The notes under the pieces: generated by a model
The model's database searches: none
Told to the model about the DNA's origin: nothing
Seen by the model: only the letters and a program-made list of their open reading frames with translations
Shown: in pieces, positions 20,820 through 38,332 of the stretch
How positions within the stretch are numbered: the stretch's first letter is position 1
Layout of the letters: every line of letters starts with the position of its first letter
Program-made: the position numbers and the translations under genes
Assembly: GCA_963813535.1 (NCBI GenBank)
Contig: CAWEZH010000003.1
Location: forward strand, 320,001-384,000
DNA from: an uncultured Chloroflexia bacterium
GTDB lineage: Bacteria > Chloroflexota > Limnocylindria > Limnocylindrales > CSP1-4
Reading direction: 5' to 3'
DNA: 64,000 nt

Positions 20820-22175
20820 ATGGATTCACGGATCTTGAGCACTCCGATCCAAGCGCAGGCGGTCAGGTCCGAGCGGCCCCGGGATGTTGCTGATCTTGTT
20901 CGAGGCGCGACGATTGAGGGTCGATCGGTCGATGGGAGCTGGACAGCGCTCGACACTTGGGCATTCCTACTTCCTGCCGTGTCCTTCCTTGAGATTGCCC
21001 TCATTGGGAGGCTTAAGGTCAGCGAGCTCCTCGCAGTCGCGATGCTTCCTTGGCTTCTTGGAAGGCGGGGCCGCCTGCGCGTGCCTCGCTGGTTCATGGT
21101 GGTGTGGGCAGGCTGGTTTATTTCTCAAGCAATTACGGACGTAGCTGTTGGCAGCGCATTTGCGGACTACTCGCGCGGATGGGCCAAGATCCTGGTCACG
21201 CTGACTAGCTTCCTGGCCATCCTGGTTCTGATTTCGACTCCCAAGCGCGCCCGCCTTTTTGCTCTCGGGCTCGCTCTTGCAGGCATCGCTGGCTACGTTC
21301 TGAACCCGAGCGCCGGCGCCGCCGCGGACCCATGGAAATGGGCTCTGGCCCTTCCCATCGGATTGCTCCTCGCCACGGCCGTTTCGGGCACCAGGGGGCC
21401 TGCAATCGCCGGGACTTACCGTGGGCGCCTTCATGCTGTTTGGTGCCCTAAATCTGGTCCTCGGATATCGCAGTCTGGGCGGCGTGGCCCTGATGACCGC
21501 CGCCTACCTGGTGTTGAACAGTCTTGTAGGCCGTTCGGAATCGGCTTTTCGTCCCTCCATCGGCCGCGCATTCGTCGGCGTGGTTTCCTGCGTGGTGATG
21601 GCCGTCAGCGTTCTGGTTGTCTACGACCTGGCAGCGGGCCGTGGCCTGCTCGGCCCCGACGCGCAAGTGAGGTACTACACGCAAGCAGGTTCTCTTGGGG
21701 TTCTCCTCGGCGGAAGGCACGAGTCGCTGGTCTCGACACAGGCAATCCTGCATTCCCCGATCCTCGGACATGGCTCGTGGGCAAGGGATCCGAAATACGT
21801 GGAGTTGCTTTCCGACCGTTTGACGGAGCTAGGGTACGGGGACATCTCCACCGATCCAGCCGACATTCTGGCGTGATTCCAGCCGACTCCTATCTGCTCG
21901 GAGCATGGGTCGAAGGCGGCATCCTGGGTGGATTGTTCTGGCTGGCTGTCGCTGGCTCGGCCGCATGGCTCTTGCTGAATATCTACGCAGTGCGGTGGGC
22001 CTTGACGCCACTGGTCGTGTTCTCCACGACTCTTCTACTTTGGAATATCGCGTTCTCCCCCTACGGGGAGGCCGGCCGTTTGACAGCCCCCTTTGCCATT
22101 GCGCTTTGCCTGCTAGCTTCTCAGTACTTGCGTCCTCTCGACCAGGTAGGTCCAGTCAACAAGTCCCGAGCGTGA
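20820..22175 (+). CDS. O-antigen polymerase/ligase-like membrane protein (Wzy/WaaL), frameshifted
   Basis: Many TM segments; GRHESLVSTQAILHSPILGHGSWA and IPADSYLLGAWVEGGILG resemble the Wzy_C region. Confidence 0.7.
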   Translation: MDSRILSTPIQAQAVRSERPRDVADLVRGATIEGRSVDGSWTALDTWAFLLPAVSFLEIALIGRLKVSELLAVAMLPWLLGRRGRLRVPRWFMVVWAGWFISQAITDVAVGSAFADYSRGWAKILVTLTSFLAILVLISTPKRARLFALGLALAGIAGYVLNPSAGAAADPWKWALALPIGLLLATAVSGTRGPAIAGTYRGRLHAVWCPKSGPRISQSGRRGPDDRRLPGVEQSCRPFGIGFSSLHRPRIRRRGFLRGDGRQRSGCLRPGSGPWPARPRRASEVLHASRFSWGSPRRKARVAGLDTGNPAFPDPRTWLVGKGSEIRGVAFRPFDGARVRGHLHRSSRHSGVIPADSYLLGAWVEGGILGGLFWLAVAGSAAWLLLNIYAVRWALTPLVVFSTTLLLWNIAFSPYGEAGRLTAPFAIALCLLASQYLRPLDQVGPVNKSRA

Positions 22176-23041
22176 AGGTATCGATCGTCACGATTTCCTT
22201 TAACCAGGCGCGCTTCTTGCGGCGCGCAATAACCTCGGTCCTTTCACAGGATTATCCGGACATCGAGTACATCGTTGTTGACCCTGGGTCGACAGACGGG
22301 AGCCGCGAGATCATCAATGCGTACGGGCCCAGGCTCGCAAGCGTCATCTTTGATCCGGACGATGGCCCTGCTGATGGACTCAATCGCGGGTTCCAATTGG
22401 CCACAGGCGATGTCCTTGCATATATCAACGCCGACGATGCCCTGCTCACCCAGGTGCGGTGCGCGAAGCCGTCGACTATCTCAGGGCACATCCAGAGACG
22501 GATGTCGTTTACGGCGATGGCTACATGGTCGATGTCGATGGAATGGTCCTTAGACCAATGAAGATCGTCCTCGTTCAACGTGCGTCGGTATGCGTACGGA
22601 AGCGTGATGGTGCTGCAGCAAGCGACCTTCTTTCGGAAATCAGCATTTGAGCGAACGAGTGGCTTCAATGTCGACAATCGAACGTGCTGGGACGGAGAAC
22701 TACTCGCCGATATTGCGATTGCCGGTGGGCGGCTCGCGCATGTCTCGAGACGATGGGGCGCATTCGCGATCTATCCGGAACATCGATCTACCGGGTCCCG
22801 GCGCGACGCGAGCCAGGCCGTGCGTGACGTTCGGCGCATCTTCCGGAAATTACAGGGGCGGGAGTGGCGCCGGCCCGACCAGTTGATAAGTAGGTTGGTA
22901 AGACTCGAGAAGTGGATATTGTCGCCGGGCGCAACTCTCAGGCGCCTGCGCTTTGCCCTCCTCGGTCCACCTGGGACGCAGCTAGTTGTCGCGGATGATC
23001 AGAGCATCGAATTGGTTTCTGCTGTCCGCCAGAGCAAGTAG
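22172..23041 (+). CDS. Glycosyltransferase family 2, frameshifted
   Basis: GTG at 22172: KVSIVTISFNQARFL...EYIVVDPGSTDGS...ADGLNRG...YINADD, later QQATFFRK in another frame. Confidence 0.82.
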
Positions 23042-24170
23042 ATGACCGGGAAGCGGCGCGCGAATTCCGCAATACAGCCAGCCCTCGTAGCGGGCATCCG
23101 GGTAATGCATGTCATCCCCTGGCCTGTCTATGGGGGGCCCCACAACGAGGCGTTGACCCTGGGCCTACAAGCAGCTCGAATGGGTTGGAGCCTGACGGTG
23201 GTCGTCCCTCGGGATGCTGATGCGGCGGCCCTACGACTTCAGACGCGGGGGATCAAAGTCTTCAGGCTCCAGCTCACTCGCCTTCGGCGAACTCGGAGCG
23301 CTTTCTACTGGCTCCTGTATCCGCTCAGGTTCCTCATTGATGTGTGGCGATTGGCGCGACTGATGAGAAGGGAGGAGGTCGACGTTGTCGAAGGCTCCAG
23401 CGTCAACGTCCAGGCGGCTCTTGCCGCGCGCCTGGCGGGCGCTGGGGTGGTCTGGCGCCTTGCCGATGTTTCGTCCCCGATGATCCTGCGGCGCGCTGTC
23501 GGCCTCCTTGTGCCGGACTTTCTGGCCGACGCAATCCTTGTGAATGGGTACGCCACGCTTGACGAATATCCCGGTCTGGCAAAGGCCGCTGACAAGGTGA
23601 CGGTGGGCTGCCCGATGATCGATGACGCGGCTTTCCGGAATCTGGGGAGTCGGATCAATAGAGGAGGGGCGGTGATCATCGGCATGGTGGCCAATATCAA
23701 CCCCGATAAGGGGATTGACGTCTTTGTCGAGGCTGCGGGGATATTTTGAAGAAGGAATGACTTCCAGTACGTCTAGTCGTGGTGGAGAACCAGGACGCCA
23801 GTGGGATGTCGCGGCGCTGCACGCGCGAGTGCAGGCGGACTCTGCGGGAGCCAATTCGAGTTCGCGCAGGCGGTGACGAAGCGATGTGGCCGACCACATG
23901 CGGCATATGGATGTGTTCGTCGTCGCTCGACCGGGAGAGGAGGCACGACAACGGCGGTGTCGGCATGCATCTGGTTACGGTGACAACGCGACCTGAAGTA
24001 GAAATCGGGCCGTGGTGCGCGACGGTCAGCGTCGTGCACCCCATGGATAGGCGGGCAGGGCCGTGCCGTGCTCTAGACGACAAGCGTTCGCGGGGGTTTG
24101 CCATAGAGAGCCAGAGGCGGATTGAACTAATTTCGCCATCACGAAAACGCCTGTCAACGCGTCCCTCAGT
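23042..24170 (+). CDS. Glycosyltransferase family 4; C-terminal half fragmented, end approximate
   Basis: VMHVIPWPVYGGPHN and IGMVANINPDKGIDVFVEAA. Confidence 0.7.
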
Positions 24171-24289
24171 CTATGGTCCAGTGCTGGGAATTCGACGCCA
24201 TCGAGGGAGGCATACCAAGTCCGGTGGTCAAGGGCAAATGTGCTGCCCCTTCGTCCTGACCCCCCGAGGTAGCACCCAGGCCCCGTCCC

Positions 24290-25330
24290 ATCGGCCGCTG
24301 ATATCGGTTTGTGCCGGGGGGCGACCGGGCCGGTCCCCTAAGGGAGTTGTTGGAGTCGGCCGCGAGCCAAACCGAATCGGACTACGAGATCCTCATTCGC
24401 GAGGATTCGTCTCCTGAACGCCTTACGATCCGCTCAACCGTCGACGATTTCATGCGTTTGAACCCAGATCTGACCGTTCGGTATTCGTGGAGAACGACAC
24501 GAACCTTGGCTACGACGCCAACTTGCGCGCCCTCGTCGACTCGGCCAGAGGGTCCTACTGCTTGTTCATGGGCAACGACGATCTGCTCGCTCCAGACTCG
24601 TTGACCGTCCTAGCGGCCGCGCTAAGAGCCCGCCCGGAGACACAGGTTGTGCTTCGGACCTATGCCACGTTCGACACGGATGGTCGGCAAGTCGTGCATA
24701 GGTACTTCGCCGACACCCGCTACTTTCCGCCTGGAGCAGCATCGGTAGTGACCTTCTTCCGCCGATCAGTCGTGATTTCAGGGCTCTGCGTTCATCGGGA
24801 TAACTCCGCCGCGGTCGCCACGAATCGCTTCGATGGCACGTTGCTTTATCAGCTCTATCTCTCTGGGATGCTTCTTTCACGTGGGCCGGGCCTATCGCTC
24901 CCCGACGTCTTGGCTCTGTAGAGCCAAGGCGGAAAGTGGCCACCTTGATTTTGGAGTCAGCTCATTTGAGCAGGCTTACACGCCAGGCGGAGGTCACTCC
25001 GAGCTCGTCCTTGTCGTTCGTCAAAGGAATGTTGGCCATCACGAAGGAACTCGAACGGCAAACACGACTCAAAGTCTTCCAGCCGATCGTGCATGACCTT
25101 GCCAACTACTCCTACCCCCTTCTCAGAGAGCACGCAGCTCGGCCGGTGCGAGAGTACGGCCCCCTTGTGCGAGGGCTCGTACGACTTGGTCTCGGAGGAG
25201 TCCCCTCTTTTGGTCCTTGTCCTGCTGGTTGGGGCCCTCGGGCCGAGCCGGTCCGATAGGGTGATAGAGAGGATCCGAGTGATGACGAAGGCTACCCCGC
25301 GGCTGGTAGCTTTTCTGGTGGCGGCGCAAA
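24290..25330 (+). CDS. Glycosyltransferase family 2, multiply frameshifted; ends approximate
   Basis: Fragments LISVC, YEILIREDSSP, NLGYDANLR, GSYCLFMGNDD and VISGL. Confidence 0.7.
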
Positions 25331-28798: not shown

Positions 28799-29777
28799 CT
28801 AACGACAGGTTCCGAGGCGTATGAGGTAGACCTGCTCCTCGATCCACTGGTAGGTCGAGCGAAGGCCGACTCCTCCAGATCAATCCTGGGCTCCCAGCCA
28901 AGGACTTCTCGAAGCCGTGTGTTGTCCGAGTTGCGGCCGCGAACGCCTTGCGGCCCGTCGACGTGATGTAAGCGCAGATCCCATCCTTGCCCGAGATTCC
29001 GATGATCATCGCGCAAGCTGGTTGATGCTGACCATGCGATCAGTCCCAGAGGTTGAGCGGGTCGCGATGATCCGACATCATCAGCCGGTAGATGCCTTCA
29101 ACGCAGTCGTCGACGTGGCAGAACGAGCGGGTCTGCTCCCCATCACCCCAAACGTCGATCGCACCCCCGGGCTCGTCCAATGCGACCTTCCGGCACAGGG
29201 CGGCTGGCACCTTCTCGCGACCCCCGTCGTAGGTACCGTATGGACCATAGACGTTGTGGAAGCGCGCGATGCGAGTCTCGATCGGGTACTCGTCGGCGTA
29301 GTAGCGACACAGGATCTCCGTCATGAGCTTCTCCCAACCGTAGGCGTCCTGCGGCTGAGCCGGGTATGCATCCTCCTCGCGGAGAGGGCGCACATCCGCA
29401 TCCGTTTGCAGGTACTCGGGATAAACACATGCCGAGGAGCTATATAGGTACCGCTTGACGCCGTTCCGGCGGGCTGCCTCGATCGTGTGCAGGTTGATCA
29501 GGGCATTGTTGTGCAGGATCGTGGCGTGGTTGGCGGAGATGAAGCCCATGCCTCCCATGTCCGCTGCCAGTGCATACACATGGTCGACGTCGCGTGTCGC
29601 GGCGCTGCGCTTCACCTTCGATCCGCAGGTCGCGGATCTCGAACGAGTCGGCGTCGATCGGGTGTACTCAGGCTCCTTGAGGTCGACCCCGCGCACCCAA
29701 TATCCCCGCGCTTTCAGGTACGTCACAAGATGATGACCGATGAAGCCTCCAGCTCCCGTCACCAAGACTCGTTCCAT
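28799..29777 (-). CDS. GDP-mannose 3,5-epimerase-like NAD-dependent epimerase, frameshifted
   Basis: VLVTGAGGFIGHH, LAADMGGMGFI, YSSSACVYPE, PQDAYGWEKL, GGREKVPAALCRK and GPQGVRGRNSDNT. Confidence 0.88.
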
Positions 29778-29880
29778 CTCGCTTCCCCCGCGATCGTATG
29801 CAGGTCTTCCTGACACAGTGCCGGCCTAGAGATGGCAGGCCGCGAGAGTGGGTTCGAGTGGTCACTCATGGATCGTCGAG

Positions 29881-31489
29881 CTACGCAGGCGGCTGCGCCG
29901 GCGTCGGTTGTGAGCTCGCGGCTCCGCCGATCTCTGTGCCTGGGCCTCCATACGCACCGTAGTAGTCGTAGGTATACGCGGCCGCCGCATCGACGCGGTT
30001 CAACACCACCCCCAGAACGCGGGCACTTGCCCTCGCGAGAGCGTCCTGAGCGCTCAGGACGGTGCCTCGATGCGTGCGGCCGGCGTCCACGACGAATAGC
30101 GTCCCGTCGACCATCGAGGACAGGATCGCCGCGTCTGTCACGGCCTGGACGGGTGGGCTGTCCAGGACGACGTAGTCCGCAGCGTTCGCTAGCTCCCGGA
30201 GTACTGCTTTCATCCGTTTCGATCGGAGGAGCTCCGCCGGGTTTGGCGGGAGGGGTCCGGTCGTGATGACCATCAGCTTGTCCTGCTCTGTCGGCTGCAT
30301 CGCTCTTCGATAGCGGCTCGGTCCCGTCGAAGCAGGTTCGACAATCCGGTCGAGTTCGAAAGGTTGAACAGCTTGTGGACGCCAGGCTTACGAAAGTCGG
30401 CGTCCAAGAGGATGGTCCGGTGCCCCGCCTGCGCCATCGCGACGGCAAGGTTGGCGGCGGTCGTCGTCTTGCCTTCGCCTGGGATGGAACTCGTAACCAG
30501 CAACGTCTTCATGGGCGCGTCAACGCTCGCGAACTCTGTATTCGTTCGAAGCGATCGATAAGCTTCTGCTGCCGGGGAGCGCGGATACAGCAGCGTCGCG
30601 AGCCGGTAGATCTCGCTGCGGTCACTTCCGCCCTTCATCCGCGTAATGGCCCCGAGGGTCGGCAGCCCCAGGATGGCCTCGACATCGTCGGCGGACTTCA
30701 GGCGGTCGTCGAGGTACTCGAGTAGGAAGGCCAGAGCGAGCGCCAGCGCCAGGCCCACGATGGCTGCGATCAGCGTGTTGAGCAGGACTCGTGGCGAAGA
30801 TGGCTGGGGCGGGGGCGTTGCCGGGTCGACGACCGTCAGCAGGTTTGCCCCGCTGGTCGACGAGAAATCCAGAATCGTCGCGTAGGTCTGTTCGAGAGTC
30901 ACGACACGAGCCTGGAGAACCTCGAGCCGCTGGTCTTCCGCGGTGGACCGCGAGGACACGTTCGTCAGCCGCTGGATCTCATCCTGGGTATCGCGAATCT
31001 GCGTTTGGATCGACTCGAGGCTCCTCGTCGATGAAGTGCTGGACATCGCTGTCGACACCGGAGATCGCTGGTGAGATCGCTAGCAATTCCTCGGCGAGAG
31101 CATTCGCTAGTGCGGCGGCGCGGCGCGGGTCAGCGTCCTCGACAGTAAGGTGGACGAGAATGGATTCTCGTGGCGCCTCGGCGCGGACTCGGTTTGCGAA
31201 TTCCTCAGGCGTTGGTCTGAAGCCCGTTGTTCGCGATAACGCCTGGAGCTGGGGGCCTGCGACCGCGAGATCCGCGTATGTCTGTGACAGCCGCTGGCTC
31301 GCGAGCAATTGATTGATGTCTGGATTGATCGCTTGAACGCTCTGACCGACCAGGAGAGTCGTTCGAGCTTCGTAGACCTTTGGGAGTGATGGAGATCAGG
31401 AATGCGGCTGCCGCCCCGGTGATCAGTGCGCTAGCAAGCAGTAGCCACCATCGAGAGCGGAGGACGCTTAGCTGCTGTCTGAGTTCCAT
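29881..31489 (-). CDS. Polysaccharide co-polymerase/tyrosine autokinase (Wzc, CpsCD fusion), frameshifted
   Basis: N-terminal Wzz-like part (MELRQQLSVLRSRWWLL); AEAYRSLRTN, TSSIPGEGKTTTAANLA, LDADFRKP, VVLDSPP; Tyr cluster YTYDYYGAY. Confidence 0.9.
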
Positions 31490-31540
31490 GGTGGGTCGGC
31501 AGTATAGGTCGGTCTGGAAGGGTGGAGTCCAGAGTGCGTC

Positions 31541-33490
31541 CTACTCGAAGAGGATGTCGAGCTGGATATCTCGATCGAAGGTGGTCGAGAAGGTTGCAGT
31601 GTTCCCACGACTGGTCACGCCCTCGCTTGCCGAGATGATCCGCCCGCCCGTCGGCAGTCGGACGATCACCGAGAGTGGGCCGGGTAGCAATCCTGGCTGT
31701 TTCTGGATCGTGAGTCTGTAGCGGCGTCCGCTCCCCACGGTCTCGACGACATATGGGCTCGTCCAGATGTACCGAAGACCGCCCTCTCCCGGCGGGATCA
31801 TCAGATAGGTGCCGATCACGGCGCGCCCGGCTTCCTCGTCGACGATGGCCGGGCCGGTGAGCTCGTCCAGGGTCCCTCCCGAGACTTCCTCGACGCGGCT
31901 TCGTTCGGGAACCAGCAGCCGGAAGTACGTCCCGAGGATCCGCAGATCCTCGAGGGTGGGCAACTCGCGGATCGGCGCCCCTGCAGGCGTGTCGATCGGG
32001 TTGTCCCAGCTCACCTCGAGCGTATTCAGCGCGTTGCCGACGTCGTCGAGACTGACGTCGAGGCGCAGGCTGCGCGTGGCGATCGCGTTGATCTTCGAGG
32101 CCGGCGTCACGTTGGCGTCGACCGGATAGAGGAAGTCGCCAGGGTCCTGACGGACGGCGCCGTCGAACCCGGTGGCCGCGGCCATCGCCTGGTCGTCCTG
32201 ATCCTTGAACCACGCAAGGAGCAGCCGCTGGGAACGAAAGCGGTCGACGTGGCCGACCATCTCGGTCCACTTGTTCGGTGGCAACGCGATAAGGCGGGCA
32301 AAGAGCTCATCAGCGAACGCCGACAGAAACGCCTTCCGATCCTCACCAGGTTCCGCGACGCGAGTCAGTTGGAGGGTCTTCAGGGTCGTTTCACCGCTGC
32401 TGATCGTTGCGTCGTATCCCGGGACGGCGACGGGGCCTGTGACCTGGAGAAGCTCGTCGATCGTGTGTGTCGTGATCCCAAGGACGCCGTCGATGTCCGC
32501 GTCTTGCGATTCGCTGGCATAGAGCTTCGCGGCGACCTGGGCGCTCGTCGGGAAGTCGGGCGACCAGTTCGCGTCTGACAACTGCCATCCCTGTCCGGAG
32601 CCCAGCACGTAGTCCTCGAGGTCCTCTGGGGGAGCGATGAACGGGTTGTCTGGCCCATCCAGCAGGAAGACGTCGCGGAACGTGTGCTCGACCACATGCG
32701 CGCGATCGAAGACGACGATGCCGTAACTCCCGATGTACCCGCCCGTCGGTCGGAGCTCGGCCGGGTTCTGCGTAAGGACCAGGTACCGGCGCGGCGCGTC
32801 CCAGCCGAGCATCGCAGGCAAGCGGGCGCTCACCTCGACGTACGCGTCCAGGAGCGGCAGGTAGGTATGGATCTTGTCCGCCATCGTCGAGCGAGCGGCC
32901 TCGATCGGGGCGGCCAGCCCCTTGGGCACCCTGTCCAGTGAAGCGGCTGCGCTCGTCACCGACTGCTGGGCATCGACGGCTGCCGAACGGGTCGTCGCCA
33001 TCAGCTCGACCATGCTCGCAAGCGTGGAATCGCCTGAAGGCGTCGAGGTTGCGCGTTCCTTGAGCTCGACGAAACGTCGGCCGATCAGCAACCCGTGGTC
33101 AGCCGCGTCCAGGAGTCGCCGTGCCGCCTCGAGGATGGCGTCGGCGCCGCGGACGTCAGCGGCGCTCAGCGGCAATGCGCGGGCTAGCCCGATGAGCGGA
33201 TCCGACTCAAGGAGAGTCCCGAGCTGGTCCACTTTGCCGCGGGTCGCGGCGATGCCCTGCTCGACCTCGTCGAGTCCCTGGCGATCGATCTCCATGCCGG
33301 CGCTCTCGACTCGGCTGGCCAGCGACACCACGTCGGCCTGGAGTGACCGCGCTTCGTCCAGTGCCGGCAGGTATCGGTCGAAGGCGAGCCAGCCCAAGCC
33401 GGCTGCCAGGACAACGACGAGGCCTCCTGCCCATAGCGCCCGCCATCGTCTGCGCCTGGTGCGACGGCGACGACGCCTCGTATCCGTCAC
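31541..33490 (-). CDS. DUF4012 domain membrane-anchored protein
   Basis: GTG at 33490 overlaps the sortase stop; Arg-rich N-tail and TM; RRYLVLTQNPAELRPTGGYIGSYG, DANWSPDFPTSA, IDGVLGI and YRLTIQKQPG. Confidence 0.85.
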   Translation of the reverse strand: MTDTRRRRRRTRRRRWRALWAGGLVVVLAAGLGWLAFDRYLPALDEARSLQADVVSLASRVESAGMEIDRQGLDEVEQGIAATRGKVDQLGTLLESDPLIGLARALPLSAADVRGADAILEAARRLLDAADHGLLIGRRFVELKERATSTPSGDSTLASMVELMATTRSAAVDAQQSVTSAAASLDRVPKGLAAPIEAARSTMADKIHTYLPLLDAYVEVSARLPAMLGWDAPRRYLVLTQNPAELRPTGGYIGSYGIVVFDRAHVVEHTFRDVFLLDGPDNPFIAPPEDLEDYVLGSGQGWQLSDANWSPDFPTSAQVAAKLYASESQDADIDGVLGITTHTIDELLQVTGPVAVPGYDATISSGETTLKTLQLTRVAEPGEDRKAFLSAFADELFARLIALPPNKWTEMVGHVDRFRSQRLLLAWFKDQDDQAMAAATGFDGAVRQDPGDFLYPVDANVTPASKINAIATRSLRLDVSLDDVGNALNTLEVSWDNPIDTPAGAPIRELPTLEDLRILGTYFRLLVPERSRVEEVSGGTLDELTGPAIVDEEAGRAVIGTYLMIPPGEGGLRYIWTSPYVVETVGSGRRYRLTIQKQPGLLPGPLSVIVRLPTGGRIISASEGVTSRGNTATFSTTFDRDIQLDILFE

Positions 33491-34056
33491 GGGGCCGGGT
33501 AGGCGATGACGATGAACCGCGGATCCGTAGCGTCCTCTGACGTCGATGTCTGCAGCGTCAGCTGCTCGGTCGGTGTCGGGTGCGTGTACTCGAGCGCGCT
33601 CCAAGGCGCATCGGGGACGATCCTGGCGACGTCATAGGCGTGGGCAGATCCGTTGGCCATGACGATCACGACACGATCGCCCGGTCGTGCCTCCTTCAAG
33701 CGGAGGAACAAGCCTTCTCGGGCATGACCGTAGACGTAGATGTTGGTGCCGTCTCCCGGCCAACCTGAGCCTGGAAAGTGCGCCGCGGTATCCAGCGGTG
33801 CGTCGATCCCGTCGCCCTCGATGATCGGCAGGTCGATCCCGAGTCGTTCATATCGGATCCGGTCGACGGGGACCGGTGACGCGGCCATGCCCGCCGAACC
33901 ATCAGTCGAGGATCCGGGGGCAGAGCCAGAAACAGCCTGGCCGTCTGTCGAAAGCCGCGGGCCTCCGCTCAGCCCGACCGCCACGACGGTTCCAACCAGG
34001 ATCAGCAGCCCGACTAGGGCAACGGACATGAGCAGACGGTGCTGGTGGATCCTCAT
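33487..34056 (-). CDS. Sortase-fold protein with TLQTS in place of TLxTC
   Basis: N-terminal TM; LGIDLPIIEG, AAHFPGSGWPG, NIYVYGH, FLRLKEARPGD, LTLQTS and PRFIVIA. Confidence 0.85.
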   Translation of the reverse strand: MRIHQHRLLMSVALVGLLILVGTVVAVGLSGGPRLSTDGQAVSGSAPGSSTDGSAGMAASPVPVDRIRYERLGIDLPIIEGDGIDAPLDTAAHFPGSGWPGDGTNIYVYGHAREGLFLRLKEARPGDRVVIVMANGSAHAYDVARIVPDAPWSALEYTHPTPTEQLTLQTSTSEDATDPRFIVIAYPAP

Positions 34057-34102
34057 CGACTAGACGTGGTCAACGGGAGGCGCGGCCGTACCCGTTGGCG
34101 GC

Positions 34103-34732
34103 TCAGTGGCGGCGCAGTCGATCCGGCCGGATGAGCAGGCCGATTCCGAGAAGGAGTGCGAGGACCGCGAGGAGCGTCGGTGCCGTGCTAGGGGAGGTCG
34201 AGGTCCTTGGCAACTCACCGATCGCCCGGACCGGGGTGCCCTGCGTCTTTGACGACGATCCGGTGGTCAGGCTGCCGGTGTTCGATCCAGAGCCGACACT
34301 CTGCACGCCCGACCGACCGTACCGATCATCGTCATCGTCGTCGTCGTCCTTGACCTTGACCCTCAGGCTCAGCTTTCCGCTGACATCGTTCCATCTGGCC
34401 TTGATGACCCGCTTGCCCGGCTTGCAACCGAACTCGATGGTCGTCGTTGCCACACCGCTTGCATTGGTCGTTGACTGCTCGGGGCTGATGTCATCCCCCG
34501 CCTTCGACTTCTTGAACGACCAATGGACGACGGCCCCTACCACCGGGGTCCCGTTGGCATTTCGAACGGTGGCGCTGAACGTGAACGACTGGTCGCACTC
34601 CACGGGTCCCCGCGGGCCGCTGATAGCGAGCGACGCGCGCTGCGGGCTCGTCGCGGATGTCGTTCCGACGGCGACCATCGCGACGAAGATGCCGATGAGG
34701 CACCCGAGCAACCAGACTCTGCTTCGGATCAT
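34103..34732 (-). CDS. Secreted Ig-like (Big_1-like) protein with C-terminal sorting signal LPRTS-TM-basic tail
   Basis: Start MIRSRVWLLG at 34732; ATVRNANGTPVVGAVVHW...STTNASGVATT; Asp7 and Ser/Thr/Gly linker; ELPRTS, hydrophobic helix, RPDRLRRH. Confidence 0.75.
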   Translation of the reverse strand: MIRSRVWLLGCLIGIFVAMVAVGTTSATSPQRASLAISGPRGPVECDQSFTFSATVRNANGTPVVGAVVHWSFKKSKAGDDISPEQSTTNASGVATTTIEFGCKPGKRVIKARWNDVSGKLSLRVKVKDDDDDDDDRYGRSGVQSVGSGSNTGSLTTGSSSKTQGTPVRAIGELPRTSTSPSTAPTLLAVLALLLGIGLLIRPDRLRRH

Positions 34733-34848
34733 CCGTCCCCCGTTCGGTCCCGCCTGCATCGCAGGAGGTGCCGACATTCGTGGCAGGTTGACCATACACC
34801 TGCCCACAAGACCCCACAGGCCTGTTCTCGCGGCGGACGGTGCGAACG

Positions 34849-35663
34849 TCATGTCGTCGGCGTCGGTGTCGGCGTCGATACGCTTGTCGGTGCGGGTGTC
34901 GGATTCGAACTCGGTGCGACGACCGCCGGGAAGGCAAGCGGCCCAGGCCGCGCGGCGATGGCCCAGACCGCGGTCAGTCCGAGGGCGAGAAGGGCGACGA
35001 TTGCCGCCAGATCGACCGACCCGCCGTCCACGCCGGCGGCGCAGGGCCGACCGATGTGGACGGTTATCGGCAGCCGGCGAGGCGATCCGTCGAGCGGCGA
35101 TCTCCGCCCGGTCGCGCTGCAACCGGTCATCGAACGCAGCAGGGCCCTCGACGATGTCCGATGCCGGGAAGCGGGGACATGTCTGGAAGGTTTCGGACAG
35201 GCAGTACGCGCCCTGATGCGGCAGGGAGATCTTCTCGACCTTGCCGGCGACATGACATCGATGACCCGGGGAAGCGAACATGAAGTGCGTCGCCGCGTCG
35301 TCGACCAGGCCAAGATAGGGGCATGCGCTTGCCGTCAGGATCTCGCCGCTCGCGCTCGGGGCAACCGGGAGCGTCTCTGGCTCGACGGACTCTCCGGCCG
35401 GAGCTGACCGTGTGGTCTCGTCCTGCATTTCCGTGGCGATCGATGACGCGTCGGTCGGCCCGGCCTCGACGCGCTGCGCTTCGATGGCCGGGCGCCTGAC
35501 CCCCTGGACCACGGCAAGGATGCCGCTCGTGTGACGCGGCATGACTGGGCTCGATCGGACGCGCCAACTCTGTGCTCGGCTCGAAGTCGAACCTGCACTT
35601 CAGGCAATAGCGGAAGGAGCCAGCTCGAGCCGTCCCGCAAACGGAGCATCGTTCGGTGGCCAC
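34849..35663 (-). CDS. Cys/His-rich (putative Zn-binding) membrane protein, frameshifted
   Basis: CSVC...CLKC zinc ribbon; ACPYLG...HRCH...HQGAYCL...CPRF; TM LAAIVALLALGLTAVWAIA and PT-rich tail; pieces lie in three frames. Confidence 0.55.
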
Positions 35664-35777
35664 GGGCCGCTCGACTCACCTCGATCAGGAGTCCGGACGT
35701 GTCCCCCGGTCCGGATGTGGCCCGTGATTGTGCCCGGAGTTTCCCTCGGATACCAGCGGGGCCCTTTCGCGCCAGAG

Positions 35778-36657
35778 TCACGACTGAGGGTCGTGCTCCT
35801 CGTCCGCCTCGATCGGAACGGCTGGCCGCCGGCGGGTCGATCGTCGCGGGATCGGCGGTAGGCAGTCCGGTCCAACCCTTGCGGTCCGTGGATGCGATGT
35901 TCGCCACGCCCCGTTCGACGGCCGCCTGTGGGATCCGCCAACCCCACGCCATCGGCCCGGTGATGCCACGCCGGAAGAGCAGGAAGCGGTCGGCGTCGGT
36001 CGTCGACTCGAGGAGCCGGTAGGAGCCCGCCTCCTCGACGATGTCGAGGACCGGCTTGAAGACCGTCTCGTACCAGTGACGGGCGCCCTCCTCGGGCGAC
36101 AACAGGCGGCCTTCATCGTGGGAGAGGTCCAGCGTGTGGGCCTTCACCGACTCTTCGAGCTCCAGGTATCCATCTGGGTCCGAGAGCGCGAACCGCTTCC
36201 TCGGACACGCCGCCGCAAGACCGGTCACCTTGCGGAACCGGAGCTCGCGCGCCGACGCTCGGATCGACGCCATCGTGGCCCCCGGGCCGACGTGGAGTTC
36301 GGTCTCGAAGCGGTCGACGTCCGCGTCGACCTCCGTCCGCCCGGCGGCGATGACCAGCGACAGGCGCTTGTGTCCGTCCTCCACGAAATAGCCGTGATCG
36401 ACCTGGATCAGCGTGATGGGCTTGTCGATCACGCTCGGGTCGGCGGCACGCTCGCGGATCGCGGTCCGGAGTCCCTTCGTCTTCGGTCGGAAGCAGGCGT
36501 CGAAGTCGTGGACTCGCCCGACGGAGCCGATGATGTCCGCCACCTGCACCTCCCGGCGACCGACCGGGAGGCGCGTCCCGAGGTTCAGCCGGCGGCGGAC
36601 ATCCTCGAATGACAGGAGGTCCCCGCAGTCACGACCGCGCAGCATCGCCTTCGCCAT
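35778..36657 (-). CDS. ParB-like N-terminal domain/DUF4032-type protein; both ends uncertain
   Basis: LLSFEDV, IIGSVGRVHDFD, PITLIQVDHGYFVEDGHKRLS and ARHWYETVFKPV. Confidence 0.7.
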
Positions 36658-36808
36658 GGCATCCCAGTCTCACGCATCTGCACGGGCGTCGTCACGCGGA
36701 ATGCAAGTCAGGTCCCGTGCTCGCAGCCTTCCTGAAGTCGACGGCGGCTACGGTGCCAACACGCAACATCGCGCCAAGCGGATCCAGCAGCGCGAGGAGG
36801 AGACTCGG

Positions 36809-36919
36809 ATGAGGCTCAAGGGGCAGGGATCGAACACCATGCTGTGGATCGCCGCGATCGTGGTTTTGATCGTCGTGGTCGGCCTCGCCTACTACTTCCT
36901 CGTTCTCGCTCCGCGCTAA
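36809..36919 (+). CDS. Small membrane peptide (36 aa)
   Basis: GAGGAGGAG RBS then MRLKGQGSNTMLWIAAIVVLIVVVGLAYYFLVLAPR; ends 12 bp before the PRC-barrel gene. Confidence 0.6.
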   Translation: MRLKGQGSNTMLWIAAIVVLIVVVGLAYYFLVLAPR

Positions 36920-36931
36920 CGGAGGAACGTC

Positions 36932-38332
36932 ATGCGCAAGGGCAAGTCCGTCATCGGGAAGGATGTCTTGTCGCTTGCCGATGGCGTGAAGCTCCAGACG
37001 GTAAGCGACCTCGTGGTCGACGCCGGGGCACGGCGTGTCGTCGCCCTCGTCGTCGAAGAGGGTGGCTTCATGTCGAGCTCGATCGTCGTGCCGACGGAGG
37101 AAGTCGAGAGCTACGGCAGGGACGCGGTCGTGGTCCGCAGCGCCGAGTCGGTGATGTCGGTCGGCGACCACGCCGACCTCCGAGCCCTCGTGGAGCGTCA
37201 CGAGAAGATCATCGGCAAGAAGGTATTCACCACGACGGGCGACGATCAGGGCTCGATCAGCGATCTGTACTTCGACGAGCGGAGTGGCGATGTCCTGGGC
37301 TTCGAAGTTTCCAGCGGCCTGCTGGGCGACGCCGCCAAGGGGACGTCATATCTGGCCAACGACGAGATCACTGGGGTAGGACCGGAGTTGATGTACGTCC
37401 GACCGGAAACGGCGGACGTCCTCGAGGGGCAGGTCGGTGGGCTACAGGGAGTGATGGCGGACGCCGGGTCGAAACTCGGGCAAACCAAGGACGCCGCATC
37501 GAGGAAGCTCGATGAAGGAAGGCCGGAGGACAAGCTGATCGGCCAGCGGACGGGCTCCGATGTCGAAGCTGACGACGGCTCCGTCATCGTCCCGAAGGGC
37601 CGTCGGATCCGAGAAGAGGATGTCGCCGCCGCGCGCGAGGCGGGGAAGCTTCCCGCGCTGAGCTCATCCGTGGCCATGGCTACTGCGCAGAAGGCCGGAG
37701 CAGAAGCGCAGGATGCCCTGGGCACCGTCGGTGACTCAGCCGCCAGCCTGTGGGACAAGTTCACGGCCAAGGTCGGAGAGATGACCGACGCGACCGGGAA
37801 GCGCGTCGACCAGGAGCAGACCAAAAGGCGGCTCTCGGAGATCACGGACGCCATCGGTCGTCCGGTCAAGAAGGTCATCCTCGACCGCGAGGACAACGTG
37901 GTCCTGAACCTTGGCGACATCATCACGCACCAGGCCGTCCAGCGTGCACATGACTCAGGCGGGCTCGATAGCCTCCTGGGCTCCGTCTACAAGGCCGACG
38001 TCGAGTTTTCGAAGGAGGAGATGCGAGCTCCCAAGGAGGCGCCCGCACAGGCCACCGTCGAGAAGGCGAGTGGCGGAGCCGTGGTCGTCGACCAGCTGGA
38101 GACCAAGGTCGAAGTCGCTGAGACTGAGCGCGAGGCCGAGAAGGAGCGGAAGCGGATCCAGTCCGAGGCCGAACGCGAACAGCGCGAGCGGGAGCGCGAG
38201 CAGCGCGGAGCCGAGCGCGATGACGCGAAGGAGGCCCGCGAGGCCGAGGAACGCGAGGATCAGGCCGCTGCGTCGGCTGCAACCACGCAGACGAGCGCGA
38301 CGGCCGTGAAAGCGCGACCCAAGAAGGGCTAG
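36932..38332 (+). CDS. Tandem PRC-barrel domain protein with charged coiled-coil tail
   Basis: GGAGG RBS; VIGKDVLSLADG...VSDLVVD and IIGKKVFTTTGDDQGSISDLYFD barrels; Glu/Arg-rich C-terminus. Confidence 0.85.
   Translation: MRKGKSVIGKDVLSLADGVKLQTVSDLVVDAGARRVVALVVEEGGFMSSSIVVPTEEVESYGRDAVVVRSAESVMSVGDHADLRALVERHEKIIGKKVFTTTGDDQGSISDLYFDERSGDVLGFEVSSGLLGDAAKGTSYLANDEITGVGPELMYVRPETADVLEGQVGGLQGVMADAGSKLGQTKDAASRKLDEGRPEDKLIGQRTGSDVEADDGSVIVPKGRRIREEDVAAAREAGKLPALSSSVAMATAQKAGAEAQDALGTVGDSAASLWDKFTAKVGEMTDATGKRVDQEQTKRRLSEITDAIGRPVKKVILDREDNVVLNLGDIITHQAVQRAHDSGGLDSLLGSVYKADVEFSKEEMRAPKEAPAQATVEKASGGAVVVDQLETKVEVAETEREAEKERKRIQSEAEREQREREREQRGAERDDAKEAREAEEREDQAAASAATTQTSATAVKARPKKG

Follow-up and report, generated by a model that had tools for sequence, protein, structure and literature searches.

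A Chloroflexota sortase with serine at the nucleophile position, in a polysaccharide locus: probably an active serine form of an enzyme regarded as "cysteine-only"

Teaching, classification and drug design all treat sortases as cysteine transpeptidases, and thiol-directed inhibitors and probes depend on the Cys being there. The Pfam family PF04203 is taken here to be MEROPS C60. Laboratory mutants of the sortase nucleophile are generally described as inactive. Ser and Cys nucleophiles have been exchanged within other protease folds. Class GN ("marine") sortases (TIGR03784) are found in Proteobacteria and have the Cys; as in the locus described here, a single sortase gene lies beside a single target gene. 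The class GN target signal, LP[QK]T[AS]T, is close to LPxTST, and the target has domains other than those of the substrate described below. In Actinomyces oris (SrtA-GspA-LcpA), an LCP-fold enzyme is reported to glycosylate a sortase-anchored surface protein (PMC6381275). Replacement of Cys by Ser in TEV protease is reported to have a cost of ~10^4-fold, recoverable by evolution (PMC4576821). Sortase C184S serves as a cys-less background in PMC5578623. No natural serine sortase was found in the main texts of the open-access papers searched.

The window is the whole stretch of DNA that was analysed (64,000 nucleotides, uncultured Chloroflexia bacterium). It encodes a sortase with the following features, sorted from the N terminus of the protein.

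33487..34056, minus strand: Ser-type sortase gene; intact ORF, 189 aa + stop, 0 Cys (Pfam PF04203; AF2 model, Foldseek)
33970..34047, minus strand: N-terminal membrane anchor, residues 4-29 (hydrophobic stretch; helix 4-29 in the AF2 model)
33490..33867, minus strand: sortase catalytic domain, residues 64-189 (AF2 strands from residue 64, pLDDT blocks 79-97; Pfam 70-187)
33724..33726, minus strand: His111 codon CAT in YGHAR (DNA read; row conservation)
33544..33546, minus strand: Ser171 codon TCG in TLQTS, at the position of the nucleophile Cys (DNA read; profile alignment to PDB sequences)
33517..33519, minus strand: Arg180 codon CGG in PRF (DNA read; row conservation)

A previous reading of the DNA, made from its letters only (the sequence-only reading), had reported an intact sortase frame, a retained His (YGH) and Arg (PRF), TLQTS with TCG at 33544-33546 and a protein devoid of Cys; all of these are found in the DNA and its translation. 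The context of Ser171 is CTG ACG CTG CAG ACA TCG ACG TCA (L-T-L-Q-T-S-T-S). PF04203 matches residues 70-187 (profile positions 4-124/125; E 5.1e-16; 59 bits, cut-off 26.6), and all top PDB matches listed by Foldseek for the AF2 model are sortases. When the family profile is aligned with PDB sequences, Ser171 falls under the Cys of ITLITC (5k9a) and MTIVTC (4d70). The protein thus belongs to the sortases by domain sequence and fold, His, Arg and anchor, and lacks the Cys of TLxTC. It scores 30.4 with the general sortase model TIGR01076 (cut-off 39.35), and none of the NCBIfam class models (A-F, GN) comes anywhere near its cut-off: class D, the best, 25 vs 165; SrtD, 24.5 vs 140; class E, 21.1 vs 160; GN, 20.4 vs 158.25; class C, 16.9 vs 160; class F, 16.3 vs 166. 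The eight-stranded barrel is shared with the classical Cys sortases (Corynebacterium diphtheriae SrtA, 5k9a and 6bwe; Clostridium perfringens SrtD, 4d70; Streptococcus pyogenes SrtA-LPATS, 7s4o), which are matched with E values of 4e-9 to 4e-8 and TM by target of 0.51-0.76. Also shared are the His, the Arg, TLxT in register, the N-terminal anchor, whose predicted helix would place the domain outside the cell, and a substrate with LPxT.., helix and basic tail. In contrast to classical enzymes, the sortase of the window has Ser at the nucleophile position and no Cys, goes with a signal LPxT[S/D]T instead of LPxTG, and has a putative substrate of its own encoded next to it as well as a DUF4012 gene coupled to its gene.

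Close homologues mostly have Ser. The site reads TLQTS in 110 of the 120 closest homologues and TLQTC in the other 10; of the 110 with Ser, 105 are entirely free of Cys, and Y-x-H-A-[RQ] and PR[FLYM] are kept in all 120. The site was also read in 151 aligned representatives (Cys in 82, Ser in 51, a gap in 8 and something else in 10, the last being in many cases fragments or partial matches and several being devoid of His or Arg in that alignment); in complete sortase domains it is occupied by Ser or Cys only. At 63 genome loci the codon encodes Ser 48 times (TCC, 24; TCG, 22; TCA, 1; TCT, 1) and Cys 15 times (TGC, 14; TGT, 1). TCG is indeed two changes from TGC or TGT, as previously pointed out; yet TCC, one change from TGC, is about equally frequent in relatives. 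His is found at position 111 in all 159 rows compared (Ser rows, 93/93; Cys rows, 66/66) and Arg at position 180 in 154 (Ser rows, 88/93, with Lys in 4; Cys rows, 66/66). Thr170 is invariant (93/93 and 66/66). The surroundings of the site are fixed more tightly in Ser than in Cys rows: Q169, 93/93 vs 46/66; T172, 90/93 vs 30/66; A112, 92/93 vs 46/66; W121, 88/93 vs 29/66. In these rows, position 171 is the only one at which Ser and Cys forms are categorically set apart.

The dN/dS ratio of 531 pairs of relatives has a median of 0.253 and a maximum of 0.556; that of close pairs is 0.05-0.2 (Ser-Ser) or 0.07-0.12 (Cys-Cys). The loci include only distant DNA relatives of the gene of the window (at best 65% aa identity), and the ratios were therefore measured on these relatives; they indicate that Ser-type genes are under purifying selection comparable to that of Cys relatives. 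Relaxed selection, which the sequence-only reading named as refuting if combined with close homologues that all have Cys, was not seen in the relatives. A tree of the 159 rows was built from 140 columns, the column of the site being left out; it is poorly resolved (74/156 inner branches open). At least 11 changes between Ser and Cys are needed on it, 4 of which are forced by starred branches, whereas shuffled labels need a mean of 51 (0/500 shuffles as low as 11). Four changes lie inside the 70-row cassette clade. On this tree Ser and Cys forms interleave, which points to an interchange of the two residues within one family.

The sequence-only reading also mentioned an adjacent putative substrate gene. 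It is present, 46 nt upstream of the sortase gene, and includes the following features.

34103..34732, minus strand: putative substrate gene, 209 aa + stop (signal peptide, Big_1, acidic and Gly/Ser-rich linker, sorting signal)
34391..34591, minus strand: Big_1 (bacterial Ig-like) domain of the substrate (Pfam PF02369, 38.5 bits vs cut-off 34.9)
34196..34213, minus strand: sorting motif LPRTST (alignment of 39 substrates)
34106..34195, minus strand: spacer, hydrophobic helix and basic tail of the sorting signal, SPSTAPTLLAVLALLLGIGLLIRPDRLRRH

The start of the substrate gene (ATG 34732) is placed according to homologues; the stop-free frame extends upstream to 35599 and its first ATG is at 35542. 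The protein ends in ELPRTSTSPSTAPTLLAVLALLLGIGLLIRPDRLRRH, i.e. LPRTST, the helix and RPDRLRRH. In 39 aligned substrates the L, P and T of the motif are invariant and the second T is found in at least 90%; the signal motif in the cassette family is LPxT[S/D]T, not LPxTG. An upstream protein with LPxT.., helix and basic tail is encoded at all assessable Ser loci (45/45: 42 by strict pattern, 3 by eye) and at all Cys loci (15/15: 12, and 3 fusions). Substrate-sortase fusions (signal peptide, Big_1, LPxT.., sortase domain) are P0126, P0130, P0137, P0138, P0150 and P0134, the last being itself a Ser form; in these, no membrane helix separates LPxT.. from the enzyme part. After the putative cleavage Thr, Thr is found in Cys forms only (LPNTTT, LPPTTA; 4/12) and Asp in Ser forms only (LPRTDT, LPRTDV; 9/45), a split that may come from kinship alone. 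Pilin-type polymerisation was considered and rejected: 38 aligned substrates have no conserved Lys, so that a pilus-like Lys acceptor is unsupported. APETG, previously suggested as a second substrate peptide, belongs to a separate protein (51521-53806, minus strand) about 17 kb away, which is at most a hypothetical substrate of the sortase. Prediction of the complex between the catalytic domain and the last 50 residues of the substrate gave a score of 0.39 (best of 3 controls: 0.00; contacts of the runs agreeing to at least 76%; partner pLDDT of at least 52), rated as weak support: the mark is passed by 116/157 solved complexes and 2/215 mismatched pairs, and passing scores of 0.60 or less include only 18/157 solved complexes but both passing mismatches. 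This pass may be memory, because sortase-peptide complexes have already been solved.

The third gene encodes a DUF4012 protein and is followed by pieces of other genes.

31541..33490, minus strand: DUF4012 membrane protein, 649 aa (Pfam PF13196, 102 bits)
32171..32803, minus strand: residues 230-440 of the DUF4012 protein, candidate LCP-like core (VIA-align with LCP enzymes, Z 8.4-10.6)
29881..31489, minus strand: immediately downstream, Wzz/GNVR and P-loop tyrosine-kinase-like pieces spread over several frames (ORFs; Pfam GNVR, CbiA, ParA, AAA_31)

The GTG start of the DUF4012 gene overlaps the stop of the sortase gene (GTGA), and a 4-nt overlap is likewise found in 25/31 loci. A DUF4012 gene follows the sortase gene in 62/65 family loci. 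Judged by gene content, Ser and Cys forms share one conserved three-gene cassette: Big_1 LPxT[S/D]T protein, sortase, DUF4012 protein. The Cys members of the cassette family (L020, L033, L040, L043, L050; P0025, P0055) are 49-57% identical over the matched stretch; they have in common the TLQT-x-TS context, the upstream Big_1-LPxTST gene and the downstream DUF4012 gene, and differ by TGC or TGT in place of TCN at a single codon. The genome of the window also encodes a Cys-type sortase (C2:1169167-1170111, TLQTCVG). Among the five cassette-bearing genomes searched, a Cys-type sortase was not found in G031 and G035, in which all sortase matches are Ser-type (locus L012 of G031 comes from a record titled "chromosome: 1"). 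Peptidoglycan genes are present (PBP transpeptidases, 5 matches; Mur ligases, 7 matches). A gene of the query type was found in only one (G013) of 18 other genomes of the genus searched, a patchy distribution that makes the cassette dispensable; most of these genomes have the Cys paralogue and not the cassette.

Of the two alternatives of the sequence-only reading, the sequence evidence favours a subclass with a serine nucleophile rather than a non-catalytic sorting chaperone, since complete domains have only Ser or Cys at the site, the His and Arg are fixed, and the two forms alternate beside the same substrate gene. A sortase-fold pseudoenzyme presenting the substrate to another enzyme (the Cys paralogue or the DUF4012 protein) is given a small chance: it would fit the loss of the defining Cys, and the Cys-type sortase elsewhere in the genome could in principle do the chemistry. 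However, binding alone would neither limit the site to Ser and Cys nor be expected to keep His111 and Arg180 (or Lys) as observed; moreover, Ser is kept via four synonymous codons, Ser and Cys have replaced each other repeatedly within one family while the partners stayed as they were, dN/dS is the same as in Cys relatives, and G031 and G035 yielded no Cys-type sortase. A small but real chance is left to an enzyme that is a processing protease only, i.e. one that cuts LPxT[S/D]T and hydrolyses the ester, the Ig-like protein being released or passed to the DUF4012 protein without transpeptidation to the wall. By general chemistry, an ester acyl-enzyme of Ser would be less prone to aminolysis than a thioester; the fusions devoid of a helix between LPxT.. 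and the enzyme fit self-cleavage and release, and the long acidic, Gly/Ser-rich linker of the substrate of the window agrees with this too. Yet separate substrates keep the full helix and basic-tail retention signal, like wall-anchored proteins, peptidoglycan genes are present, and Ser forms share their substrates with Cys forms, Cys sortases being transpeptidases.

The chance that the enzyme is active but uses another nucleophile, such as Thr170 or Thr172 of T-S-T, Ser171 being structural only, is decidedly slim. The invariance of Thr170 and the near-fixation of Thr172 in Ser forms but not in Cys forms would suit such a role; against it, Ser171 is the residue aligned with the Cys of solved sortases, and position 171 alone distinguishes the two forms categorically. 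The probability that the Ser codon is due to faulty sequencing or assembly, or that the gene is a decaying pseudogene, is close to nil. The frameshifted look of the neighbouring BY-kinase and glycosyltransferase pieces makes indel errors plausible, but a change of TGC to TCG takes two substitutions, not an indel, and the frame of the gene is intact. Ser is found in most close homologues, from many sources, including P0002, which is 91% identical to the sortase of the window and has the same TLQTS motif; relatives are under purifying selection. Short Logan contigs of two other soil runs also cover the codon (X2 record 5, 33331-33581; X3 record 8, 33423-33747), and none of the differences listed for them (40 of 60) lies at 33544-33546; with word shares as small as 0.11-0.18, this comparison is supportive, not decisive. 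An error or pseudogene is refuted as far as sequence data allow.

The best explanation, on balance a probable one, is a catalytically active transpeptidase that works with Ser, His and Arg and serves only the neighbouring LPRTST protein, in a polysaccharide locus. The enzyme would be an extracytoplasmic sortase with a type-II membrane anchor, where Ser171 replaces Cys as the acyl-accepting nucleophile, His111 acts as general base/acid, and Arg180 holds the substrate and the oxyanion; D82, D127 and E164 might provide a third, acidic residue, if there is one. Once exported by Sec, the substrate would stay in the membrane through its C-terminal helix and its basic tail; LPRTST would then be bound and cut after the first Thr, giving an ester (not thioester) acyl-enzyme; an amine, most probably that of a peptidoglycan precursor, would finally accept the protein. 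As in the TEV protease swap, Cys or Ser may do equal acyl-transfer chemistry once their surroundings adapt; unlike that swap (laboratory evolution, unrelated fold), the one in sortases arose in nature, more than once, and has become fixed in a clade. If the proposal is true, the sortase fold can carry out transpeptidation via an ester, or else it represents a signal-processing serine protease of a new kind; and since sister enzymes with Ser and with Cys have one substrate in common, extant intermediates would let the evolutionary path between the nucleophiles be read. Protein engineers might then obtain an oxidation-insensitive, thiol-free ligase with a new motif, LPxTST. A broader proposition could go either way: that sortases are not obligately cysteine enzymes, that soil Chloroflexota have large active Ser-His-Arg families with several swaps to or from Cys, and that a module of Ig-like carrier, Ser-sortase and LCP-like DUF4012 protein ties polysaccharide to a wall-anchored carrier.

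By analogy with the A. oris pathway, the translationally coupled DUF4012 protein, whose core may be LCP-like, probably joins a glycopolymer either to the carrier protein or to the wall. The A. oris pathway and the present locus both combine a sortase with a substrate, known or putative; here the DUF4012 core is a candidate counterpart of the LCP enzyme, and polysaccharide genes adjoin. The present locus differs by a DUF4012 protein that is outside the LCP family by sequence and by a sortase that is dedicated, translationally coupled and Ser-type. If the proposal is true, DUF4012, a widespread envelope family, can be tested for a role in attaching polysaccharide together with a carrier that a sortase anchors. 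The VIA-align Z of the core is 9.9 with 5v8c_A (Actinomyces oris LCP; rmsd 3.7, 163 residues), 9.6 with 2xxp_A, 9.2 with 6uex_A, 8.5 with 6uf6_A and 8.4 with 9gn3_A, values only moderately above the background of the tool (7-8) and obtained with a domain range of the whole-protein model. The LCP match was found only by VIA-align on domain ranges, Foldseek with the whole model giving only low-TM beta-sandwich matches; in Pfam the protein matches DUF4012 and, weakly and below cut-off, DUF6338, and no LCP family. Invariant or nearly invariant residues of the core are R235, R247, D278, D312, D334, D345, R377, R385 and K386; a long helical N-domain and a C-terminal beta-sandwich are added to it. 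A scan of 29000-37000 gave 0 promoter-like and 2 terminator-like signals, no excess over shuffles, and is uninformative on operon limits. No RNA record was listed for 33300-35000. The cassette adjoins polysaccharide genes; BY-kinase and glycosyltransferase pieces near it look frameshifted.

The cassette consists of a substrate gene, a sortase gene (the query, to which residue numbers refer) and a DUF4012 gene. The features, in window coordinates, are as follows.

34103-34732, minus strand: putative substrate gene (209 aa), on the same strand as the sortase gene and 46 nt upstream of it
33487-34056, minus strand: sortase ORF, intact, 189 codons (ORF reading)
33726-33724, minus strand: His111, codon CAT, within Y-G-H-A-R (DNA reading)
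33546-33544, minus strand: Ser171, codon TCG, within L-T-L-Q-T-S-T-S (DNA reading)
33519-33517, minus strand: Arg180, codon CGG, within P-R-F (DNA reading)
31541-33490, minus strand: DUF4012 gene (Pfam, 102 bits), GTG start within the sortase stop (GTGA)

The query matches the Pfam Sortase model over residues 70-187 (59 bits; cut-off, 26.6). None of the NCBIfam sortase class models comes near its cut-off, the best being class D (25 versus 165). In a search of PDB sequences with a profile of 27 family members, Ser171 aligns with the catalytic Cys both in SrtA of C. diphtheriae (ITLITC) and in SrtD of C. perfringens (MTIVTC); His and Arg also line up. The AlphaFold2 model (mean pLDDT, 78.6; catalytic domain mostly 79-97) shows a membrane helix (residues 4-29), then a disordered linker, then a beta-barrel. 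Only sortases are found among the top Foldseek matches listed against PDB (6bwe_B, E 4.4e-9; 3rcc_Q, TM by target 0.76). The serine that the sequence-only reading had placed at the nucleophile position (TLQTS) is thus borne out by DNA reading, Pfam match, profile alignment and fold; so are, by DNA reading and protein composition, the retained His (YGH) and Arg (PRF) and the absence of any Cys (0 residues). The query differs from the cysteine transpeptidase family in a defining residue (Ser171 instead of Cys), whereas the sortase domain, His and Arg are present. Because the defining Cys was tested for and is absent, the query is filed as a homologue, not as a plain family member; it probably works like a sortase.

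Short contigs from two other soil metagenome runs span the Ser171 codon without a change there among the differences listed (40 of 60), which supports TCG as the true sequence. A word-indexed search gave 591 homologues (E <= 1e-3). Among the best 120 of these 591, L-[TS]-[LIV]-Q-T-S is found in 110 and the corresponding Q-T-C in 10; Y-x-H-A-[RQ] and PR[FLYM] are present in all 120, and 105 of the 110 Ser forms are Cys-free. This predominance of Ser in the best 120 answers the earlier proposal to collect TLQTS homologues: Ser171 is not a lone mutant. An artefact is practically excluded. An exhaustive representative search (1038 proteins at E <= 1e-3) gave 151 aligned rows, i.e. 150 representatives among the matches listed plus the query, with Cys at the site in 82, Ser in 51, a gap in 8 and another residue in 10 (many of them fragments or partial matches, several without His or Arg in that alignment).

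Eighty loci were taken from species-representative genomes, nearly all labelled Chloroflexota MAGs (many Limnocylindria/Limnocylindrales). The query's own family accounts for 65, and the site codon is readable in 63; L065 is truncated where its contig stops, and L067, which reads TLQTSTG, is frameshifted. The 63 codons comprise 48 Ser (TCC, 24; TCG, 22; TCA, 1; TCT, 1) and 15 Cys (TGC, 14; TGT, 1). Every Ser codon is of the TCN type, and half of them lie a single step away from TGY. Since four synonymous codons leave the residue unchanged, they are direct evidence that selection acts on Ser at the nucleophile site.

Nei-Gojobori dN/dS was calculated on 76 catalytic domains (532 pairs of equal length and identity >= 70%). 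The 531 pairs with dS 0.05-2, i.e. all but L053/L055 (dS 0.014), have a median of 0.253 and a maximum of 0.556. Close Ser-Ser pairs (0.05-0.2) are similar to Cys-Cys pairs (0.07-0.12). The query's nearest relative among the loci, L004, shares 65% aa identity; as no close DNA relative is found there, the purifying selection proposed for TLQTS homologues holds for the family, being measured on relatives and not on the query copy.

A maximum-likelihood tree was built from 159 domains (140 columns, nucleophile column removed): 79 locus domains, the second Ser paralogue of the window's genome and 79 of the 147 representatives P0121-P0267, namely those with a complete domain and S or C at the site (68 omitted as incomplete or with another residue). 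The Ser and Cys forms are clearly interleaved. At least 11 Ser/Cys changes are needed, 4 of them forced by the starred branches alone, and 4 are needed in the 70-row clade of the query (50 Ser, 20 Cys); these counts are rough because the tree is short and many forks are open. Shuffled labels require a mean of 51 changes, and 0 of 500 shuffles was as low as 11. Near the site, Ser rows are more tightly fixed than Cys rows (Q169, 93/93 versus 46/66; T172, 90/93 versus 30/66; A112, 92/93 versus 46/66; W121, 88/93 versus 29/66). His111 is invariant in both, and Arg180 is found in 88/93 Ser rows (Lys in 4) versus 66/66 Cys rows.

The substrate protein comprises a signal peptide, a Big_1 Ig-like domain (Pfam, 38.5 bits), an acidic Gly/Ser-rich linker and the tail ELPRTST-SPSTAPTLLAVLALLLGIGLLI-RPDRLRRH. 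A homologous small protein with LPxT.., helix and basic tail is encoded directly upstream of the sortase across family loci: in 45/45 assessable Ser loci (42 by strict pattern and 3, L056, L068 and L083, by eye; three loci starting at a contig end are left out) and in 15/15 Cys loci (12 separate genes, 3 fusions). The adjacent putative substrate gene noted earlier thus exists, its signal being kept beside both forms. An alignment of 39 tails shows L, P and the first T without variation; the second T is present in at least 90%. The motifs found with Ser enzymes are LPNTST (17), LPRTDT (8), LPRTST (6), LPSTST (6) and, more rarely, LPGTST (4), LPRTSA (2), LPITST (1) and LPRTDV (1).

The linker between the Ig domain and LPRTST contains an eight-Asp codon run (34300-34330, minus strand), where one contig (X1) has a 6-nt insertion. 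The Asp run and the Gly/Ser-rich linker are missing from most substrate homologues; the linkers of L004 and L035 are charged or His/Asp-rich. The substrate frame stays open for about 290 more codons upstream (34733-35599, minus strand; first ATG, 35542), with a Cys-containing stretch (…CPYLGLVDD…HRCH…) without Pfam match; this is either a separate upstream gene joined by an indel or a spurious high-GC frame.

Six proteins (P0126, P0130, P0134, P0137, P0138, P0150) combine signal peptide, Big_1, LPxT.. motif and sortase domain in a single chain of about 295 aa, without membrane helix between LPxT.. and sortase domain. Such fusions are also read in DNA (L051:5512-6402, L059:5515-6411). P0134 is a Ser form (TLQTSLW) whose sisters are Cys. 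The fusions are Rosetta-stone evidence for joint action of Ig-like protein and sortase; each joins a sortase to its own substrate and possibly processes itself. The complex predicted for the sortase catalytic domain and the last 50 substrate residues scores 0.39, against 0.00 for the best of 3 controls; at least 76% of the contacts are shared between runs, and partner pLDDT is at least 52. The mark used is reached by 116/157 solved complexes and 2/215 mismatches, scores <= 0.60 among these being those of just 18/157 solved complexes and both passing mismatches. The prediction weakly supports the pairing, and the pass could be explained by memory of solved sortase-peptide complexes.

In 62/65 family loci the gene after the sortase encodes a DUF4012 homologue, the 3 misses being contig ends. 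The 4-nt stop/start overlap ([AG]TGA; window 33487-33490) is found in 25/31 related loci, which indicates translational coupling of the two genes. The DUF4012 model (30 homologues; pLDDT 83.3, pTM 0.81) comprises an N-terminal helix with a long helical bundle, a mixed core (230-440) and a beta-sandwich (449-649). Foldseek with the whole model was uninformative. With VIA-align (48,161 chains), the core matches LCP glycopolymer ligases: A. oris LCP 5v8c_A (Z 9.9, rmsd 3.7, 163 residues), 2xxp_A (Z 9.6), S. aureus LcpA 6uex_A (Z 9.2), B. subtilis TagU 6uf6_A (Z 8.5) and MsrR 9gn3_A (Z 8.4). Four structural-genomics chains align over the same range (Z 8.9-10.6). The core is no more than probably LCP-like, since Z is moderately above the background stated by the tool (Z 7-8) and the core was taken from the whole-protein model.

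The nearest described analogue of the cassette is the A. oris pathway, with SrtA as anchoring sortase. There, the surface protein GspA, which is anchored to the cell wall, receives its glycan from the LCP enzyme LcpA (PMC6381275). The one paper found on DUF4012 assigns it to a Bifidobacterium capsule/EPS cluster and describes enrichment in Gram-positives and Chloroflexi (PMC6744442). The DUF4012 gene is followed downstream by pieces of Wzz/GNVR and of a P-loop tyrosine kinase, by an NAD-dependent epimerase and, farther away, by glycosyltransferase fragments. The tyrosine-kinase/Wzz genes (29881-31489, minus strand) and glycosyltransferase genes (21833-24918, plus strand) are split over several frames, and sortase or DUF4012 genes are frameshifted in related MAG loci (L063, L067, L068, L080, L083, L120); these look like long-read assembly indel errors rather than decay.

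Ser171 fairly probably replaces Cys as the nucleophile: it would attack the Thr carbonyl of LPRT/ST to give an ester acyl-enzyme, which would hand the Ig-like protein over to an amine that probably belongs to peptidoglycan, while the LCP-like DUF4012 protein would handle glycan. By gene content, the genome makes peptidoglycan (5 PBP transpeptidase and 7 Mur ligase matches). A working nucleophile is argued for by the restriction of the site to Ser/Cys with His and Arg fixed, the synonymous codons for Ser, purifying selection as strong as on the Cys sisters, the recurrent interchange of forms whose partners stay the same, the fusions, and genomes in which no Cys-type sortase was found. A processing protease that only hydrolyses is unlikely, a non-catalytic protein binding the sorting signal is about as unlikely, and a different residue of the T-S-T triplet as nucleophile is quite improbable. 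As biochemical precedent for such a change of nucleophile, only TEV protease was found: replacing Cys by Ser there carries a cost of about 10^4-fold, which evolution can recover (PMC4576821). A search of full texts outside subscription journals and supplements found no naturally occurring serine sortase described.

The window's genome (G000; 3.28 Mb, 3 contigs, 92.9% complete) has three sortase-fold genes, the query and the following two.

C2:1169167-1170111: Cys-type sortase, TLQTCVG
C3:909406-910986, minus strand: second Ser-type sortase, WLQTSQG (L003)

The search of 18 other genomes of the genus (completeness >= 85%) yielded 27 sortase loci: 1 query-type (G013), 11 Cys TLQTC[VIL]G and 15 WLQTS[EQT]G; the cassette is therefore patchy in the genus. 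Five cassette-bearing genomes were searched: the sortase matches found are all Ser-type in G031 (locus L012, on a record with the title 'chromosome: 1') and in G035; G032, G033 and G034 also have a Cys-type sortase, frameshifted in G033.

WLQTS[EQT]G marks a different Ser-type family (L003, L089, L094, L096-L099, L102-L110), present in 13/18 other genus genomes searched. Lys seems to replace Arg in many copies, and no substrate gene was seen within the 1.5-kb flanks. A third Ser clade, TLQTSTG (15 loci: L064, L066, L069-L079, L081, L082), is 40-49% identical to the query; its hosts are Chloroflexota/Limnocylindria MAGs, one labelled Saccharimonadales and one labelled Solirubrobacteraceae. Neither a neighbouring sorting-signal gene nor DUF4012 was found at these 15 loci.

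Three other G000 proteins, none adjoining a sortase gene, have sorting-signal-like tails: a 496-aa protein of no known kind (C2:1516361-1517851, minus strand; LPPTDT), a cupredoxin (C2:1374885-1375544, plus strand; APPTDT) and a CopC-domain protein (C2:1030141-1032405, plus strand; APTTPT). In the window, a 761-aa repeat protein (51521-53806, minus strand), whose repeats we take to be DUF11-like, ends in APETGT, a hydrophobic helix and a long basic tail. The APETG motif that the sequence-only reading had proposed as a substrate thus exists, and this second candidate sorted protein is probably served by another sortase.
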